A stretch of 64,000 nt of DNA from a virus, in the IMG/VR virus record IMGVR_UViG_3300036770_006434, positions 64,001-128,000 of that record. One strand, 5' to 3'. The position numbers were made by a program, and so were the translations under genes. The notes beneath the pieces are model-generated. The model made no database searches. It had not been told where the DNA came from and was given only the letters and a program-made list of their open reading frames with translations. Positions 8,711-14,166 of the stretch are shown one piece after another. Each line of letters starts with the position of its first letter. Position 1 is the first letter of the stretch.

Positions 8711-9130
8711 TCAAAGTGTGATCCCGTAGGTTTCCTCAAACCATTTCGGTGACATCAGGTCTATATCCTTCTCATTCAATTCCACGTAAGTGAAGCCTAT
8801 CATCTTGCACCATTCCTCTTTTTTCAAGTCCCGGTGGACGGCGGCGCTGAAACGGATACGATCCTTGTGAAAGAATTGATTGAAGGAATGGCTGGAAACC
8901 GGACTGACTTCCACCGCGATTTGGCGGGTCCAGTTGATGAGGTCCACTCTGAGCGGGCGCTTCCCGCAGCCGGGGATAGCGAACTCCTCGGACAGGACGT
9001 GGGACACCCAGTAGGGGCGCAGGAAGTCTTTGACTCTTTTCTGGGGTTTGGACACTTTTCGGTTCCAGTCCAGAGCGTAATCCGTCAGACAGACGGGGTA
9101 TTGGCGGCCGTTCAGACCGAGGACCTTCAT
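8711..9130 (-). CDS. Restriction-endonuclease-like (PD-(D/E)XK, DUF559-like) protein
   Basis: EEFAIP...LRVDLINWTRQIAVEVSP...SH pattern; downstream of recA. Confidence 0.5.
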   Translation of the reverse strand: MKVLGLNGRQYPVCLTDYALDWNRKVSKPQKRVKDFLRPYWVSHVLSEEFAIPGCGKRPLRVDLINWTRQIAVEVSPVSSHSFNQFFHKDRIRFSAAVHRDLKKEEWCKMIGFTYVELNEKDIDLMSPKWFEETYGITL

Positions 9131-10275
9131 GTTTTGTCCGTGACCAGCTTGAGGAATTTGCCGAACAGGTAGCTAGACAGGGTCTTGTCGTCTTCCAGTA
9201 GTTTATAGAGATTGTCCACGCCCTGAATCTTTTCCGGCACTTCTACGCCGGTTTTCTCCAAGATTTCGGCGCGAATCTCTTCTGTGAAGCGAAACCACCC
9301 CCCAGTGCGCTGGACCATCTCCCACCCCATCATCAAATCAACAATTTCACGCTCCACCCAAACCGACGACGCGTTCTTGCGGTTATACTTGATGGGATAA
9401 CGGATTTCTGTCCCATACTTCTCGTTATTGCTCTTTACGATCTTGGCGCGACAGTAGTGGCCGATCACCTTGCCGGACTTTTCGCCGCCTTCCCGGATGA
9501 TGTCATCGTTGAATCGCGGCAGGAACTCCAGAACCCAGTCGCCGGCATGTTCCACGGCGTGACCACCGGAGGCACCGCCTTGTCGCGGCGGGGTCTTTTC
9601 ATATGGATTCAGCTTAATAGACTCGCGGACTTGGGAAATGAACCAACAGATGTGACCGCGCTTGGCCAAGGCCGCGCTGGTTTTCTTGAGGAAGACACTG
9701 GTCAAAAGAGACCCGCCAGCCACTTGCCCGGCCTGCTCCAAAGGTTTGGCCAAATCATCGCGTTTCGCCATCATGTCCAAGGAGTCGAGAATAAAGAAAT
9801 AGCGGGTGTTCTGGGGGTTGTTGCGGATCAATTCGCCCATGAGCCCGAAAACAGCCTCATACACATTGGACTCGAACACGAAACAGGTTCCGTCCACCCA
9901 CTTCTCGGAATCGGTGACAAATGTCACACCGGAACGCTCTTTGACCTCCTTGGACAAGCGGCCCTCGGCCTTGACGTAAAGACCCCTGTAACCATCGCCG
10001 TTTTGGAGGAAATGATGCATGAGGTCCAGAGTAAAACTGGTCTTGCCGCCGGCCGTGATCCCAGTGGCGCGGTGGGCGCCCGGGGTAATGCCGCCGTCCA
10101 TGTGAGCGGTAACCGTCAGGCTAGAGGCGCGGACGCGGTAATCATTGTCGTCTTCAAAGTTGTAGTGATCCGTTTTATTGGCCTTGAGAAAGGATGTTAC
10201 CTGCTGCTGGGGAGTGACTCCGTTTTCGGACGGATCAGTGTCATCAGCTTTATTCTTATTTGTGGTTTTTGCCAT
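9127..10275 (-). CDS. recA: RecA/UvsX-like recombinase
   Basis: Walker A GITAGGKTS; Walker B FILDSLD; ISQVRE; GGHAVEHA. Confidence 0.85.
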   Translation of the reverse strand: MAKTTNKNKADDTDPSENGVTPQQQVTSFLKANKTDHYNFEDDNDYRVRASSLTVTAHMDGGITPGAHRATGITAGGKTSFTLDLMHHFLQNGDGYRGLYVKAEGRLSKEVKERSGVTFVTDSEKWVDGTCFVFESNVYEAVFGLMGELIRNNPQNTRYFFILDSLDMMAKRDDLAKPLEQAGQVAGGSLLTSVFLKKTSAALAKRGHICWFISQVRESIKLNPYEKTPPRQGGASGGHAVEHAGDWVLEFLPRFNDDIIREGGEKSGKVIGHYCRAKIVKSNNEKYGTEIRYPIKYNRKNASSVWVEREIVDLMMGWEMVQRTGGWFRFTEEIRAEILEKTGVEVPEKIQGVDNLYKLLEDDKTLSSYLFGKFLKLVTDKT

Positions 10276-10284
10276 AGTGTAAAA

Positions 10285-11997
10285 TTATTTGGAAATCAGT
10301 CTTTTATAGAGTGTTGCAAATGCTTTTGCGGCGACATCTGGGTCAACACCGTTTCCGAGGAGTCGCAGCTCGTCAGTGCGGGAGAATCCGTGGTTGGTTG
10401 CTTCGTTATAGGCCCGGAGCGTCCACGTCTCTTCGTTAAATTGGGATCGCCATACTTCTTGAATCGCTGGTGGTGTTTCTGACAGAACCCATTGCGCCGC
10501 GCCGGACTCCCGCACGCTTTGCACAGAGAGCGTTCCTTCCACGGGCGCTTCCCCTCTTTCCAGTGCAATTTTGTATGACAGGACGCACAAAGTGTAAGCA
10601 AGTTCTCGGGCGAGTTGTTCGCGGGATTCCTGTCCTCGTGATGAATCCCTAGATTGTCCTCGGAGCCACATTGATGGCAGACCGAATCCTTTAACTGGGT
10701 CGCCCGCTTGTATAGCCCAGACAGCGAAACAGACTCTTTGAGGGAATGCTGTGAACTGCAATCCAGATTGCAGAACTGTCTCCGCAAGAACACCGCCCGG
10801 TCCTCCAGTCGGCCATTGTATCTCTTGCGTTGCATTTCTTTCCCACAATGAGAGCAGTGCTTGATAAGCACGGAGTGTTTGGCTTTCATAGGTTACGGAC
10901 GAACCCACCCTATTGGAAGCCCCATGAGAGAACAAACCCAATCCGGGTTCAACTTGCCCGATTTCGTCGCTCCCGCCCCCTCCGTCTGAGCTGGCAGATC
11001 CTTGGCTTCTCCCTTGTATGCTCGCCCTTGCTGCCCCTTCCAGTCGCGCGTTTGAGGGGTATTCCACTGATTGTGAACCTGCTCCTCCAACCGAAACTTG
11101 CCCGTGTCCATTGTGTTCCCGCCCATCTGAGACCGAGGGGTGCCCCACTGGGCTTGGCCCACTTGTGTCTCCAGATTGGGGAATCGGTCCTGATTCCAGA
11201 CTGACTCGGGAGTGATCGTTGCTGCCATTGCACTGCATGAGCGCGGAGTTGCCCACTGACTTGTGGATGACTCGGGTTGGCTCCCACCACCATTGATCTC
11301 GTCCGGGAGGCTTTGGTCGTAGATAAACGTTCCGTTGTGGTGAACCCATTCCCTCAGATTCCCGCAACCACCCTTGGTTCGCGCGCGATCCAGAGCAGTT
11401 TGACCCTTGGGCGGCACCGTGTCCATCGTGCATGGGGTCGGCCAATTGGGCAAGGATGAAAACCCGCTTCCGTTGATGGCTCGCCCCGATTTCAGCCGAA
11501 CTGAATACTCCTGCCGTTGCTCGGTAACCCACTCGCTCCAGCTCTCTAAGGACATGGAGCAGAACGGGCGTTCCTGCGGGGTCTCGCCAGTCGGTTCCGG
11601 CGAGCTTGGCGCTGATGATTCCCTCGACATTCTCAAGGAAGACGAGTTGGGGCTGGCACTCGGTGATACCTCTGAGGATGTGAGGAAACAGGTGTCTAGG
11701 GTCTTCGTCTCCTCCACGCTTCCCTGCTGCGCTGAAGGGCTGACAAGGGAAGCCTCCAGAGAGGATGCCCACTTTGCCGCGAAAGTCGGCCCAAGGGAAG
11801 GTCTTAACATCCGTCCAGATAGGTGCTGCGTCCAAGAGTCCCGCTTCCATTTTAGCGACCAAGTTCGCACAGGGGAAGGCTTCGATCTCACTAAAAGCGA
11901 CTGTGCGCAGATTGGGGATAACTCGGCTGAGTCCGATATCAATGCCGCCGTATCCGGCACAAAGGCTGATGTGTGTAAAGGCTTTGGTAGAATCCAT
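10285..11997 (-). CDS. DNA cytosine-C5 methyltransferase, alpha frame (motifs I-VIII and X, no IX)
   Basis: SLCAGYGG (I), GGFPCQPFS (IV), LENVEG (VI), HQRKRVF (VIII), ELRLLGNGV (X). The ~330-aa stretch between VIII and X is abnormally long. Confidence 0.9.
   Translation of the reverse strand: MDSTKAFTHISLCAGYGGIDIGLSRVIPNLRTVAFSEIEAFPCANLVAKMEAGLLDAAPIWTDVKTFPWADFRGKVGILSGGFPCQPFSAAGKRGGDEDPRHLFPHILRGITECQPQLVFLENVEGIISAKLAGTDWRDPAGTPVLLHVLRELERVGYRATAGVFSSAEIGASHQRKRVFILAQLADPMHDGHGAAQGSNCSGSRANQGWLRESEGMGSPQRNVYLRPKPPGRDQWWWEPTRVIHKSVGNSALMQCNGSNDHSRVSLESGPIPQSGDTSGPSPVGHPSVSDGREHNGHGQVSVGGAGSQSVEYPSNARLEGAARASIQGRSQGSASSDGGGGSDEIGQVEPGLGLFSHGASNRVGSSVTYESQTLRAYQALLSLWERNATQEIQWPTGGPGGVLAETVLQSGLQFTAFPQRVCFAVWAIQAGDPVKGFGLPSMWLRGQSRDSSRGQESREQLARELAYTLCVLSYKIALERGEAPVEGTLSVQSVRESGAAQWVLSETPPAIQEVWRSQFNEETWTLRAYNEATNHGFSRTDELRLLGNGVDPDVAAKAFATLYKRLISK
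10296..10889 (-). CDS. HNH endonuclease nested out of frame inside the C5 methyltransferase gene
   Basis: CSHC...FCNLDC Zn ribbon; CHQCG...IHHEDRNPANNSPENLLTLCASCHTKLH HNH motif; CKAC...FCQKHHQRFKKYGDP tail. Confidence 0.85.
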   Translation of the reverse strand: MKAKHSVLIKHCSHCGKEMQRKRYNGRLEDRAVFLRRQFCNLDCSSQHSLKESVSLSGLYKRATQLKDSVCHQCGSEDNLGIHHEDRNPANNSPENLLTLCASCHTKLHWKEGKRPWKERSLCKACGSPARRNGFCQKHHQRFKKYGDPNLTKRRGRSGPITKQPTTDSPALTSCDSSETVLTQMSPQKHLQHSIKD

Positions 11998-12002
11998 GTC
12001 AT
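10893..12002 (-). CDS. C5 methyltransferase beta polypeptide in an overlapping frame (motif IX-like C-terminus)
   Basis: 369-codon ORF overlapping the alpha frame. Its ATG lies 5 nt upstream of the alpha ATG (ATGACATG). It ends KLNPDWVCSLMGLPIGW, matching motif IX (LTP.E..RLMGFP..W). Confidence 0.7.
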   Translation of the reverse strand: MTWILPKPLHTSAFVPDTAALISDSAELSPICAQSLLVRSKPSPVRTWSLKWKRDSWTQHLSGRMLRPSLGPTFAAKWASSLEASLVSPSAQQGSVEETKTLDTCFLTSSEVSPSASPNSSSLRMSRESSAPSSPEPTGETPQERPFCSMSLESWSEWVTEQRQEYSVRLKSGRAINGSGFSSLPNWPTPCTMDTVPPKGQTALDRARTKGGCGNLREWVHHNGTFIYDQSLPDEINGGGSQPESSTSQWATPRSCSAMAATITPESVWNQDRFPNLETQVGQAQWGTPRSQMGGNTMDTGKFRLEEQVHNQWNTPQTRDWKGQQGRAYKGEAKDLPAQTEGAGATKSGKLNPDWVCSLMGLPIGWVRP

Positions 12003-12013
12003 GTGTTTATATT

Positions 12014-12418
12014 TTACTCTTTGTCCGCCCATTCCGCCATACTCAGCTTCTTGGGCTTAACCTCTGTCTTGGGGGCTTCCCCACTATCCGTCAAACTATC
12101 CAGTATGCCGCATTTGTCAACCCATTTCAGCAAATCCTCTTTCTCCAACTGGTGGGTAACCCAGAACTCGCGGAGGGCGGCCTGACCGTTTTCTGTCAGA
12201 AGATAGGACAGGCTTTCCAGCTTTTCGTGGGGGCGGAGATTGAGCCAAAACACTTCGTCGGGATACGATTTGCGGAGTTTGGACAGGATTTTGAGTTCTC
12301 GGCCCCAGACCCCCGGCTGTCTCAGGGCTTCCGGCTTCAAGAGCCGCGCGAGGATGGAGCAGGAGATTCCGGCGGGGGATAGGGGGTCTATGGGTTTGCG
12401 GAATTTCTTCCAAGTCAT
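12014..12418 (-). CDS. Hypothetical protein (134 aa)
   Basis: ATGA overlap with the thyX stop; in operon. Confidence 0.65.
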   Translation of the reverse strand: MTWKKFRKPIDPLSPAGISCSILARLLKPEALRQPGVWGRELKILSKLRKSYPDEVFWLNLRPHEKLESLSYLLTENGQAALREFWVTHQLEKEDLLKWVDKCGILDSLTDSGEAPKTEVKPKKLSMAEWADKE

Positions 12419-14166
12419 AGATTAAAAGCGGCGATAGTGTGCTTGAACGGGTTGCCCTCAATCTCTTTAACAAGTCTCAGCATTTCGGCGACAACCATCT
12501 GCGTTTCCTTTTGGGCATCGGGTTTCAGCCGCAGGTTGCAGAGATGGACGAAAGCGAGAAAACTGCCGGTCCAAATAAAAGTTGTTTCGAGACAGAGAGG
12601 AAGAATGACCCGGCATTGCTCCTTAGCGACACCGAAATCTTCCATTTCCCGGTATAGCTTTTGGGCGGCGTCCACCAGTTCCTGCATTTTAAGCCGGAAG
12701 TTTTGGTTGTCAGACGCTTCAAGATCGCCGGCACTTCCCTGCTTGCTGGACTTGGACTGATAGCGGAGTTGCTCCGGAATATCGTAGGAATCGGAAAAGT
12801 CCACGTATCTGCCCGAAATGGAATTTGCAGAATTGTGAACGACCATGCCATTTGCAACAAAATTTTTCCATTTTCCATCAATTTCAATGTCGTATGTTTC
12901 CTCTGTCCCAATTTTTAAAATTGACACGATTTTTGAAAAACCAACTTTTAAACGAGCCTTAGAGCGGTCTCCAATTCTTTTTTTATAAATGAATGGAACA
13001 AAATCTTTGGAAGAAACTTTTTCTGCAAATTCAATTTCATTTTCCAAGCTAAAATGGATTTTTTTGTGACAATCTTCGCAAACAGTTATTAGATTGTCAA
13101 AATCCATACCTTTTGACGGATTTTGAGCTACTGGAATAATGTGGTGAGCGTGTAATTTGCCACTGCTTTCTCCACATTTTTGACAGGTAAAATTGTATTT
13201 TTTGTGAACATTATGCGCGTTCCGCGTTGACCAAACGGCTATCAAATCCCGATTTTCAGTTATGCCACCTCGCCAAAAATGACTATTCTCTCCCTTTCTT
13301 GCATTATTTTTTGCATGTAATACCTTGTTTTTATAACTCTCTTCTGTAAAATTTAGGGAATAACCTTTTACGTTTTCATTCCAAGGTCTGTTGCCGGGCT
13401 TAAAACAAGTTTCCTCTTTTGAAAAACAAAGATTATGTATTTTAAGCCATTTTCTAATAGTATGATAAGACACTTTGCAATCACATGCCATTTCTTCAAC
13501 AGACATTTTTTTATCTCTGCACAGTTTCAAATAATTATAATCTCTATAGTTTCCATTACCCGCTACGGAAAGCCCATTTGTTGCAATGAAGTCAGCCAGA
13601 CCCAAACCGTCGGTGATAGTTTTCCAACCATCTTTTGTAAAAATCTTATGATCTTTTGAACACTTTAGACTCTTTCCGTCTTGCAGGGTGATTTCATATA
13701 TTTCTTTTACCCCGGATTTGAAGACATTTTTGATATTTGACGTTTCAAAAAAACCATTATCCTCGTTTAAAACCCTTATTTTTCTGCCGCTAATTCTTCT
13801 TTGTTGATATTCTTTGTCTTTGGGCGTGTTCTGGTGGGGGCGACCATTTTCCCATTTTTCATATAAGTCTTTTATCTTTATCTTTTGGATTTTACCAGAA
13901 GCCTGTTTGAAATAGATTTCCGAATCGCCTGACAAACACCAGCCGATTTGGTGCTTAAACAGTTGTCTCTCAACGAAGATCGCGCATTTTACTCGGAACT
14001 GCAACTGGGAATGGCGGAAGGGCGACGTATGATTGTGGGCGACAAGGTATTTCAGAAGTTTTTCGTCCTTTTCGTCAAACGCTTCCTTGGTCTTCCCGTA
14101 GCTAACGCGGGCCACGTTCGCGGCCATCAAATCGCCGCCAAAATAGTCTAGGAGTTCGGCCTTCAC
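12415..14166 (-). CDS. thyX: Flavin-dependent thymidylate synthase ThyX containing an intein
   Basis: ANVARVSY, HTSPFRH, RQLFKHQIGW|SANSISGRY (ThyX motif split by the intein), KEQCRVILP, NLRLKPDAQKE. Confidence 0.92.
   Translation of the reverse strand: MKAELLDYFGGDLMAANVARVSYGKTKEAFDEKDEKLLKYLVAHNHTSPFRHSQLQFRVKCAIFVERQLFKHQIGWCLSGDSEIYFKQASGKIQKIKIKDLYEKWENGRPHQNTPKDKEYQQRRISGRKIRVLNEDNGFFETSNIKNVFKSGVKEIYEITLQDGKSLKCSKDHKIFTKDGWKTITDGLGLADFIATNGLSVAGNGNYRDYNYLKLCRDKKMSVEEMACDCKVSYHTIRKWLKIHNLCFSKEETCFKPGNRPWNENVKGYSLNFTEESYKNKVLHAKNNARKGENSHFWRGGITENRDLIAVWSTRNAHNVHKKYNFTCQKCGESSGKLHAHHIIPVAQNPSKGMDFDNLITVCEDCHKKIHFSLENEIEFAEKVSSKDFVPFIYKKRIGDRSKARLKVGFSKIVSILKIGTEETYDIEIDGKWKNFVANGMVVHNSANSISGRYVDFSDSYDIPEQLRYQSKSSKQGSAGDLEASDNQNFRLKMQELVDAAQKLYREMEDFGVAKEQCRVILPLCLETTFIWTGSFLAFVHLCNLRLKPDAQKETQMVVAEMLRLVKEIEGNPFKHTIAAFNL
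12832..13938 (-). mobile_element. 369-aa intein with an HNH homing endonuclease
   Basis: Starts CLSGDSEI and ends VANGMVVHN before Ser(+1). Block B CSKDHKIF; block F TYDIEI; internal CQKC...HAHHIIP...NLITVCEDCH. Strongly AT-rich relative to the exteins. Confidence 0.93.

Follow-up and report, generated by a model that had tools for sequence, protein, structure and literature searches.

Organization of the locus

The locus lies in a 64,000-nt window, the whole stretch of DNA that was analysed (bases 64001-128000 of the 190,671-bp IMG/VR phage record IMGVR_UViG_3300036770_006434, which has direct terminal repeats), and consists of a C5-methyltransferase gene read in two frames, alpha and beta, with an HNH endonuclease gene nested in it. 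Coordinates are window positions, and all three open reading frames (ORFs) are on the minus strand. The alpha ORF (10285-11997) encodes 570 aa, from an ATG at 11997 to a TAA at 10287-10285. The beta ORF (10893-12002) is in the +1 frame relative to alpha and encodes 369 aa, from an ATG at 12002 to a TAA at 10895-10893. The HNH ORF (10296-10889) is in the beta frame and encodes 197 aa, from an ATG at 10889 to a TGA at 10298-10296. A sole codon, CCT (10892-10890), separates the beta stop from the HNH start, which places the stop 3 nt ahead of the ATG. The alpha frame is free of stops from 11997 to 10285, HNH ORF included, and its C-terminal end, RTDELRLLGNGVDPDVAAKAF, is methyltransferase motif X (RTDELRLLGNGV, 10345-10380), which overlaps the tail of the HNH ORF. 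Both features had been named in the original prediction, which described the beta TAA followed after one codon by the ATG of a 197-aa zinc-ribbon/HNH ORF in the same frame, and an alpha frame open across that ORF as far as motif X; both are seen in the sequence. Three proteins are thus predicted from one 1.7-kb stretch. Gene callers report one or two, and annotation pipelines therefore miss the beta subunit and the HNH protein.

The start of beta is probably the ATG at 12002 (MTWILPK...) and not the one at 12032 that opens the longest ORF; the beta proteins of relatives open with MTWILPK or MWILPK. The ATG at 12002 is 5 nt upstream of the alpha ATG at 11997. The alpha and beta starts (11995-12002, ATGACATGG) have no obvious Shine-Dalgarno sequence, and neither does the neighbouring RecA-like gene, so the host may rely little on initiation led by such sequences. 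No promoter-like site was found inside the gene on the coding strand.

The methyltransferase in two frames

Residues 1-188 of alpha carry C5-methyltransferase motifs I-VIII (Pfam DNA_methylase matches residues 7-187, E=5.9e-32) and are followed by a long linker, the read-through of an insert (residues 365-540) and the motif X helix. The invariant columns of alignment A2 include PCQPFS, ENV, QRKRV and RTDELR..GNGV. In the AlphaFold2 (AF2) model of alpha, the predicted local distance difference test (pLDDT) values are 70-95 at residues 1-188, about 30 at residues 189-370 (the 'shadow' of beta) and 87-89 at residues 551-570; the insert part (365-540) is predicted with moderate confidence to consist of helices (pLDDT 45-87). 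Beta is composed of W-x-T-P modules and motif IX (LNPDWVCSLMGLPIGW, 10905-10952), the latter nearly invariant in alignment A3. Its homologues number 1250, with about 97% length coverage, and none has a Pfam domain; PHROG phrog_1008, 'DNA methyltransferase', matches beta at E=1.7e-9.

Both frames are open over the whole gene in the related loci L004, L005, L006 and L084 and in the HNH-bearing loci. Across the beta recognition region of the window, about 4-7 alpha-frame stops are expected by chance (P(0) 0.0003-0.003). Counting beta-frame stops across the alpha catalytic region is a weaker test (P(0) 0.008-0.11). When alpha residues 1-190 and 533-570 were modelled together with beta residues 160-379, the complex scored 0.68, against 0.00 for the best of three controls; of 80 solved complexes 58 attain this score, and of 110 mismatched pairs 2 do. 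At least 32% of contacts are common to the runs, partner pLDDT is at least 42, and the model sets motif IX of beta against motifs I and X of alpha. The modelled pieces appear to fit like one enzyme, although the model is no proof of binding, and resemblance to solved single-chain C5 methyltransferases may account for its pass.

An enzyme divided in a similar way is M.EcoHK31I of E. coli HK31 (Lee, Kam and Shaw 1995, in PMC2836561), whose beta chain, with motif IX, is encoded in another frame inside the alpha gene, and for which both chains are required for activity (PMC2836561). Common to both systems are an alpha with motifs I-VIII plus X, as well as an other-frame beta with motif IX. The beta chain of M.EcoHK31I has 61 aa, whereas that of the window has 369 aa, spans nearly the whole gene and, unlike its counterpart, starts 5 nt from the alpha start. 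The alpha chain of M.EcoHK31I keeps the target recognition domain, whereas beta of the window appears, by its sequence, to hold recognition modules as well. M.EcoHK31I is without a nested nuclease. The possibility that a programmed double frameshift, from alpha into beta and back, yields one methylase chain was considered for the window and rejected, since such shifting would not require both frames to be open gene-wide, as they are in every relative examined.

The nested HNH protein

The HNH protein consists of an N-terminal zinc ribbon with two CxxC pairs, an HNH core and a C-terminal CxxC...CxxH module. Residues C12, C15, C40, C44, C71, C74, H83, H84, N96, C101, C104, H105 and H109 are invariant in an alignment of 26 homologues, those from C71 to H109 making up the HNH signature. 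PHROG phrog_1271, 'HNH endonuclease', matches the protein at E=3e-13, and the family profile matches the HNH domain of IscB at E=1.2e-5. The AF2 model (m609f0fd8545a) has pLDDT of at least 93 at residues 11-110 and 121-150, 85 in the first block, 76 at residues 111-120 and 50-63 in the tail. The folded part, residues 1-155 (10425-10889), is the part covered by the confident model and by VIA-align matches, and the last approximately 40 residues are the old beta-frame tail over alpha motif X. Structural neighbours in VIA-align are HNH nucleases, namely the phage GVE2 HNH protein (5h0o; Z 5.7, root-mean-square deviation (rmsd) 3.7, 65 residues aligned), T5 SciA (Z 5.1), EcoKMcrA (Z 4.8) and the homing enzyme I-HmuI (Z 4.5, rmsd 2.4 Å, 59 residues); Z values as modest as these are expected for a 65-residue domain. 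Foldseek gave no match in the PDB at E <=0.001, and its weak top rows were HNH nucleases. Going by model and alignment, the nested protein has the HNH fold and the catalytic residues.

The insertion and its empty-site alleles

Insertion-free alleles, which set the boundaries of the insert, were found in L084 and L006; the 527 nt of the window at 10378-10904 correspond to 35 nt in these alleles. These limits were taken from local DNA alignments to the two alleles and from alignment A2. DNA homology extends up to 10905, at the GW of motif IX, the motif being the last stretch ahead of the insert that is homologous to the empty-site alleles, and resumes at 10377, at the TDE of motif X. The window allele is longer by 492 nt (164 codons), with both host frames kept in phase. 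L084 is a 139-kb contig that is syntenic with the window (methylase, RecA-like gene and the same downstream genes), and its methylase allele is uninterrupted. The HNH gene, described in the original prediction as overprinted, is an insertion with presence/absence polymorphism and did not arise by overprinting de novo.

The HNH gene is present in the window and in L085 and absent from L084, L006, P0241 and P0242. The methylase of P0242 is the one nearest to that of the window overall and is free of HNH, and the alleles that share the GNGVDPDVA tail (P0241, P0242 and L006) are all free of HNH. The stretch just 3' of the HNH gene in the window (EETWTLRAYNEATNHGF) is like that of other HNH-bearing alleles and unlike that of the HNH-free alleles with the GNGVDPDVA tail, as expected of co-conversion during homing. 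The patchy distribution and the co-conversion-like flank are the two features that speak for putative active homing into empty alleles. The peptide TLRAY occurs in the alpha frame near both ends of the insert, at 10878-10864 (TYESQTLRAYQA) and 10422-10408 (EETWTLRAYNEA).

Constraint on the host frame

The other same-strand frames of the 190.7-kb phage have about 4% stops per codon, and the longest alternative-frame run outside the methylase gene is 209 codons (146 genes of at least 150 aa). When the HNH protein was held fixed and its synonymous codons were redrawn in 3000 draws, the expected number of alpha-frame stops was 10.3 when codons followed genome usage and 7.0 when they followed that of the gene itself; none is observed, and 0/3000 resamples were stop-free (P(0) < 1/3000). 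The earlier judgement that a stop-free frame of this length is unlikely by chance is borne out by these 7-10 expected stops. An alpha-frame stop arises at a risky junction, where an HNH codon stands before a codon beginning with AA, AG or GA, whenever the third position of the first codon is T. In the window HNH gene, codons ending in T occur at 0/54 risky junctions and at 37/142 others. Pooled over 36 distinct stop-free homologues, of which 35 lie within a longer host ORF and one, L031, is free-standing in a GC-rich genome, T stands in the third position at 0/1561 risky junctions and at 27.6% of the other junctions; in four distinct homologues whose host frame is not kept open, the rate at risky junctions is 25.2%. 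The synonymous sites of the HNH gene are selected against alpha-frame stops, and the open frame is not due to chance.

Within the insert, amino-acid identity averages 53% for the HNH frame against 34% for the alpha frame, and nucleotide diversity at HNH codon positions 1, 2 and 3 is 0.39, 0.34 and 0.53. The third-position peak and the higher identity indicate that HNH is the frame conserved as protein; across the insert, alpha appears to be constrained mainly to stay open.

These data bear on the possibility that the insertion inactivated the methylase, alpha being a decaying pseudogene and its open frame a recent accident. The methylase is probably dispensable, since those of related phages have been lost or truncated (the deletion derivative L013/L032), which speaks for such decay. 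The open frame and an invariant motif X persist, however, where the HNH protein has diverged to approximately 60% identity and lower, and chance would have placed the 7-10 stops given above in the frame, which makes a pseudogene very unlikely. The 570-aa alpha would instead retain methylase activity.

The second-longest alternative-frame run of the genome (208-209 codons) lies outside the window, at G000:C1:149039-150760 (L083:240-1961, minus strand). It was considered as a similar dual-coded case and rejected: the gene encodes a 573-aa acidic, low-complexity, scaffold-like protein, and the run looks compositional.

Splicing

The Rfam scan of 9800-12500 at E up to 10 found no intron and gave three snoRNA-like chance matches only. 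Pfam found no Hint or intein match on alpha or on the insert peptide, and the alpha-frame insert peptide has no match in Pfam or PHROG. An intein junction (Cys/Ser/Thr ... His-Asn) is not present, the residues at the two edges being ...GW/VGSSV... and ...GFS/RTD.... Rfam, Pfam and the junction residues thus agree with the first reading of the sequence, in which neither intein signature nor intron structure was recognised.

If the insert were a group I, group II or other intron that carried the HNH ORF and was removed from the mRNA, the open alpha frame would be irrelevant. Phage group I introns commonly carry HNH genes, and the TLRAY repeat near both ends of the insert is a further point in favour. 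Besides the absence of an Rfam intron model, the HNH ORF occupies the insert from 16 nt past its 5' edge until after its 3' edge, so that a ribozyme core would have no space, and the sequence varies across the insert in the manner of codons. Neither a stop-free frame nor a length divisible by three is required of an intron, yet none of the 1561 risky junctions in the 36 alleles has the T that would make a stop; the search with RNAweasel in the study of a comparable insertion, the ShiLan domain, was likewise negative (PMC11855218). A stop-free, in-phase host frame kept by selection would be pointless if the segment were cut from the RNA, so splicing is unlikely and an intron at this site is highly improbable.

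The insert also continues the frame of the host protein and contains a nuclease gene, as an unusual intein spliced out of the alpha protein would do, and real inteins occur in this gene family (at motif IV of the L085 methylase) and in the adjoining ThyX. The nuclease gene is in another frame, however, and the alpha-frame peptide has neither a Hint or intein match in Pfam nor the junction residues of an intein and is predicted to be helical, not Hint-like; the chance that it is an intein is close to negligible.

Distribution among relatives

More than 100 homologues of the HNH protein occur in a large protein collection. The scan of IMG/VR with the homologue alignment gave 68 loci, of which the best 43 were analysed; HNH identity is 34-65%. 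The host (-1) frame across the HNH gene has no stop in 37 of the 43 loci, and the third frame has 2-13 stops in all loci with a stop-free host frame except L050. In most of the analysed loci motif X (GNGV, GNAVVP or GNGQVP) follows downstream in the host frame, and motif IV is often found upstream. Stops across the insert in the alpha frame of relatives had been proposed as a sign against dual coding; they are confined to free-standing or decayed copies, which have 1-20. The free-standing copies have 20 (L051/L052) and 6 (L057) host-frame stops, the copy that follows the methylase gene in L041 has 4, and the decayed copy in L055/L056 has 1. Motif X (RTDELRLLGNGV) does not vary among the 17 A2 sequences, whether HNH-bearing or HNH-free, or among the HNH-bearing loci. 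The HNH gene of relatives starts 3-30 nt past the beta stop. Readthrough of the TAA to give a beta-HNH fusion, also put forward in the original prediction, was rejected as a conserved feature, because two or three stops lie between beta and the HNH start in relatives.

The same distribution can be read in favour of a working partnership, in which the nested HNH protein would, for example, cut unmethylated DNA of the host or of competitor phages while the methylase protects the phage genome, nesting serving to secure joint inheritance and expression of nuclease and protection. The HNH homologues are almost always in or beside C5-methyltransferase genes (34-65% identity), even the non-embedded copies of L031 and L041 have a methylase gene immediately before them, the catalytic residues do not vary, and the HNH start is just past the stop of the beta subunit. 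On the other hand, close relatives, even syntenic ones, differ in whether they have the gene (the window and L085 with, L084, L006 and P0242 without); the 3' flank of the insert resembles HNH-bearing alleles, as expected for co-conversion; copies have decayed or been deleted (L013/L032 and L055/L056); and other selfish elements have gathered at the locus, L085 having both an intein and a NUMOD4/HNH_3 gene. A partnership of this kind is unlikely, if worth keeping in mind, and the nested gene is probably selfish.

Several relatives have arrangements of their own. In L042, an HNH gene of the same family lies between motifs IX and X, both of which are read in one host frame; this is a ShiLan-like order, and the host frame is stop-free. 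In L049, an HNH gene of the same family is inside a beta-like ORF near the first W-P-T-P module, again with a stop-free host frame. L013:2560-3407, on the contig of L032, is a deletion derivative in which the N-terminus of beta is fused to the C-terminal half of HNH; its alpha is cut to 276 aa, passing from just after ENV (motif VI) to the insert read-through and motif X, and both frames are open. L085:201-3602 (logan SRR21686410_26962) has the beta recognition modules of the window nearly residue for residue and the closest HNH protein, with 84% identity. Its methylase contains three mobile elements, and its alpha is open over 1134 codons; the elements are an intein in alpha at motif IV (GGFP/CFAAGTLIL...), a NUMOD4/HNH_3 gene in frame in the beta recognition region, and the zinc-ribbon HNH gene after beta. 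A cultured example is gp45 of Staphylococcus phage CUB-EPI_14 (ON325435.2; L087:615-2420), annotated as a 601-aa DNA-cytosine methyltransferase, within which, at 1801-2258 and in the +1 frame, an HNH homologue is concealed (39.5% identity, 95% coverage); the genome is low in GC. Against 50,697 phage records, blastn of the locus found nothing, and tblastn with the recognition part of beta matched only one record.

Proposed mechanism

The locus is quite probably explained by the insertion of an HNH homing-endonuclease-type gene in a two-polypeptide phage C5-methyltransferase locus, where it is tolerated by the open host frame. The host locus would already have been divided, with alpha giving motifs I-VIII plus X, and beta the W-x-T-P recognition modules and motif IX, and the two chains would be expected to assemble as in M.EcoHK31I. 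The 527-nt segment would have entered exactly between the end of motif IX in beta and motif X in alpha, a site explained by the fact that beta has just finished there and alpha has only a linker, so that extra sequence is tolerated. The HNH protein would be translated from the ATG 3 nt past the beta stop, probably by reinitiation coupled to translation of beta, and the beta stop may be a termination-reinitiation junction. Ribosomes translating alpha would read through the insert in the -1 frame, add approximately 164 helical or loose residues, and reach motif X intact. The element would need neither RNA nor protein splicing, its synonymous sites being selected to be without an alpha-frame stop. 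The original prediction held that the nuclease stays harmless by dual coding and not by splicing. Its first part, tolerance by dual coding, is supported by the synonymous-site selection, the 37/43 open loci, the empty-site alleles and the lack of an intron or intein signal, while harmlessness to the methylase is presumed.

Several points weigh against this explanation. Splicing is excluded only by argument from the sequence. The AF2 model of alpha was built on 17 sequences only and shows the insert with moderate confidence. The matches of the nested protein to Pfam HNH, HNH_2 and HNH_3 score 17-20 bits, under the gathering cut-offs of 21-25. The HNH gene has no stop of its own inside the insert, its ORF running approximately 27 codons beyond the 3' edge (10378) to the TGA at 10298-10296, and it has no clear Shine-Dalgarno sequence, its expression being predicted. 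The association of HNH with the methylase is old and deep (identity down to 34%) and also fits a domesticated partner. A bolder interpretation, which we regard as doubtful, is that HNH and methylase form an obligately linked nuclease-plus-protection module, for restriction-modification or competitor exclusion, in three overlapping frames, and that the read-through of alpha is perhaps a structured helical domain used by the methylase.

Comparison with known systems

Insertion of a homing-type nuclease gene by way of an open host frame had been proposed as an unusual third invasion strategy, but Arsenault, Gosselin and Gogarten (2025, PMC11855218) have already published it under the name ShiLan domain. 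In their case a mycobacteriophage DNA methylase contains an insertion across which the host frame is free of stops. The insertion was described to have no intron or intein features and to encode in another frame a 195-aa HNH protein with two zinc fingers. Its distribution is disjoint and homing-like, and the start of the insert has a short similarity to the sequence after the insert, which the authors regarded as a possible guide-sequence echo (PMC11855218). A second case was reported in Pacc40 gp60, with further cases in phages and prokaryotes (PMC11855218). The window locus is a further example of this published strategy and not a new strategy. Shared features are a presence/absence insertion in a phage DNA methylase with a stop-free host frame, an out-of-frame HNH protein of approximately 195 aa with flanking zinc fingers, the absence of a detectable intron or intein, and a host-frame peptide predicted as a helical hairpin or loop; the TLRAY repeat of the window echoes the similarity reported between insert start and downstream flank.

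The two cases differ in several respects. The ShiLan domain is found in mycobacteriophages, whereas the window belongs to a 190-kb metagenomic phage, and the host gene of the window is read in two frames. The HNH lineage appears, by tblastn ranking alone, to be a different one: tblastn of the HNH protein against the 50,697 phage records gave two Mycobacterium phage records at E <=0.01, neither of them in the best 40. The ShiLan HNH gene starts with GTG 18 bp into the insert, whereas that of the window has its ATG 3 nt past the end of beta. The former stops in the last bases of its insert (TAAC), whereas the latter continues over motif X, in what was the tail of the beta frame; the stop at the insert end, missing here, is a detail of the ShiLan type case and not of the strategy. 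With phage HNH homing endonucleases of the I-HmuI type, the nested protein shares a beta-beta-alpha-metal core with DNA-binding extensions and, as target, a conserved part of a phage gene; the difference is that the host gene is kept here by an open alternative frame and not by splicing or an intergenic position. No paper was found in the literature search that describes the combination of a nested HNH gene with a two-frame methylase.

A mobile nuclease gene can thus persist in a coding gene without splicing, by means of a stop-free host frame, and the strategy is widespread in uncultured phages and extends to a cultured Staphylococcus phage, so that it is not confined to mycobacteriophages. 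The present analysis adds a quantification of selection on the host frame, the mapping of an insert against a syntenic empty allele, and the observation that the arrangement is common in uncultured phages.

Neighbouring genes

A 341-aa ORF on the plus strand (9457-10482) is antisense to the RecA-like gene (9127-10275, minus strand) and is probably a by-product of codon composition. The adjoining ThyX gene (12415-14166, minus strand) encodes 583 aa, including an intein with an HNH domain (CLSGDSEIYF ... VVHNS). The GC content of the intein DNA is 0.32-0.39 (approximately 12800-13900), compared to approximately 0.52 around it, and its HNH domain is weakly similar to the nested HNH protein (40% over 43 aa).

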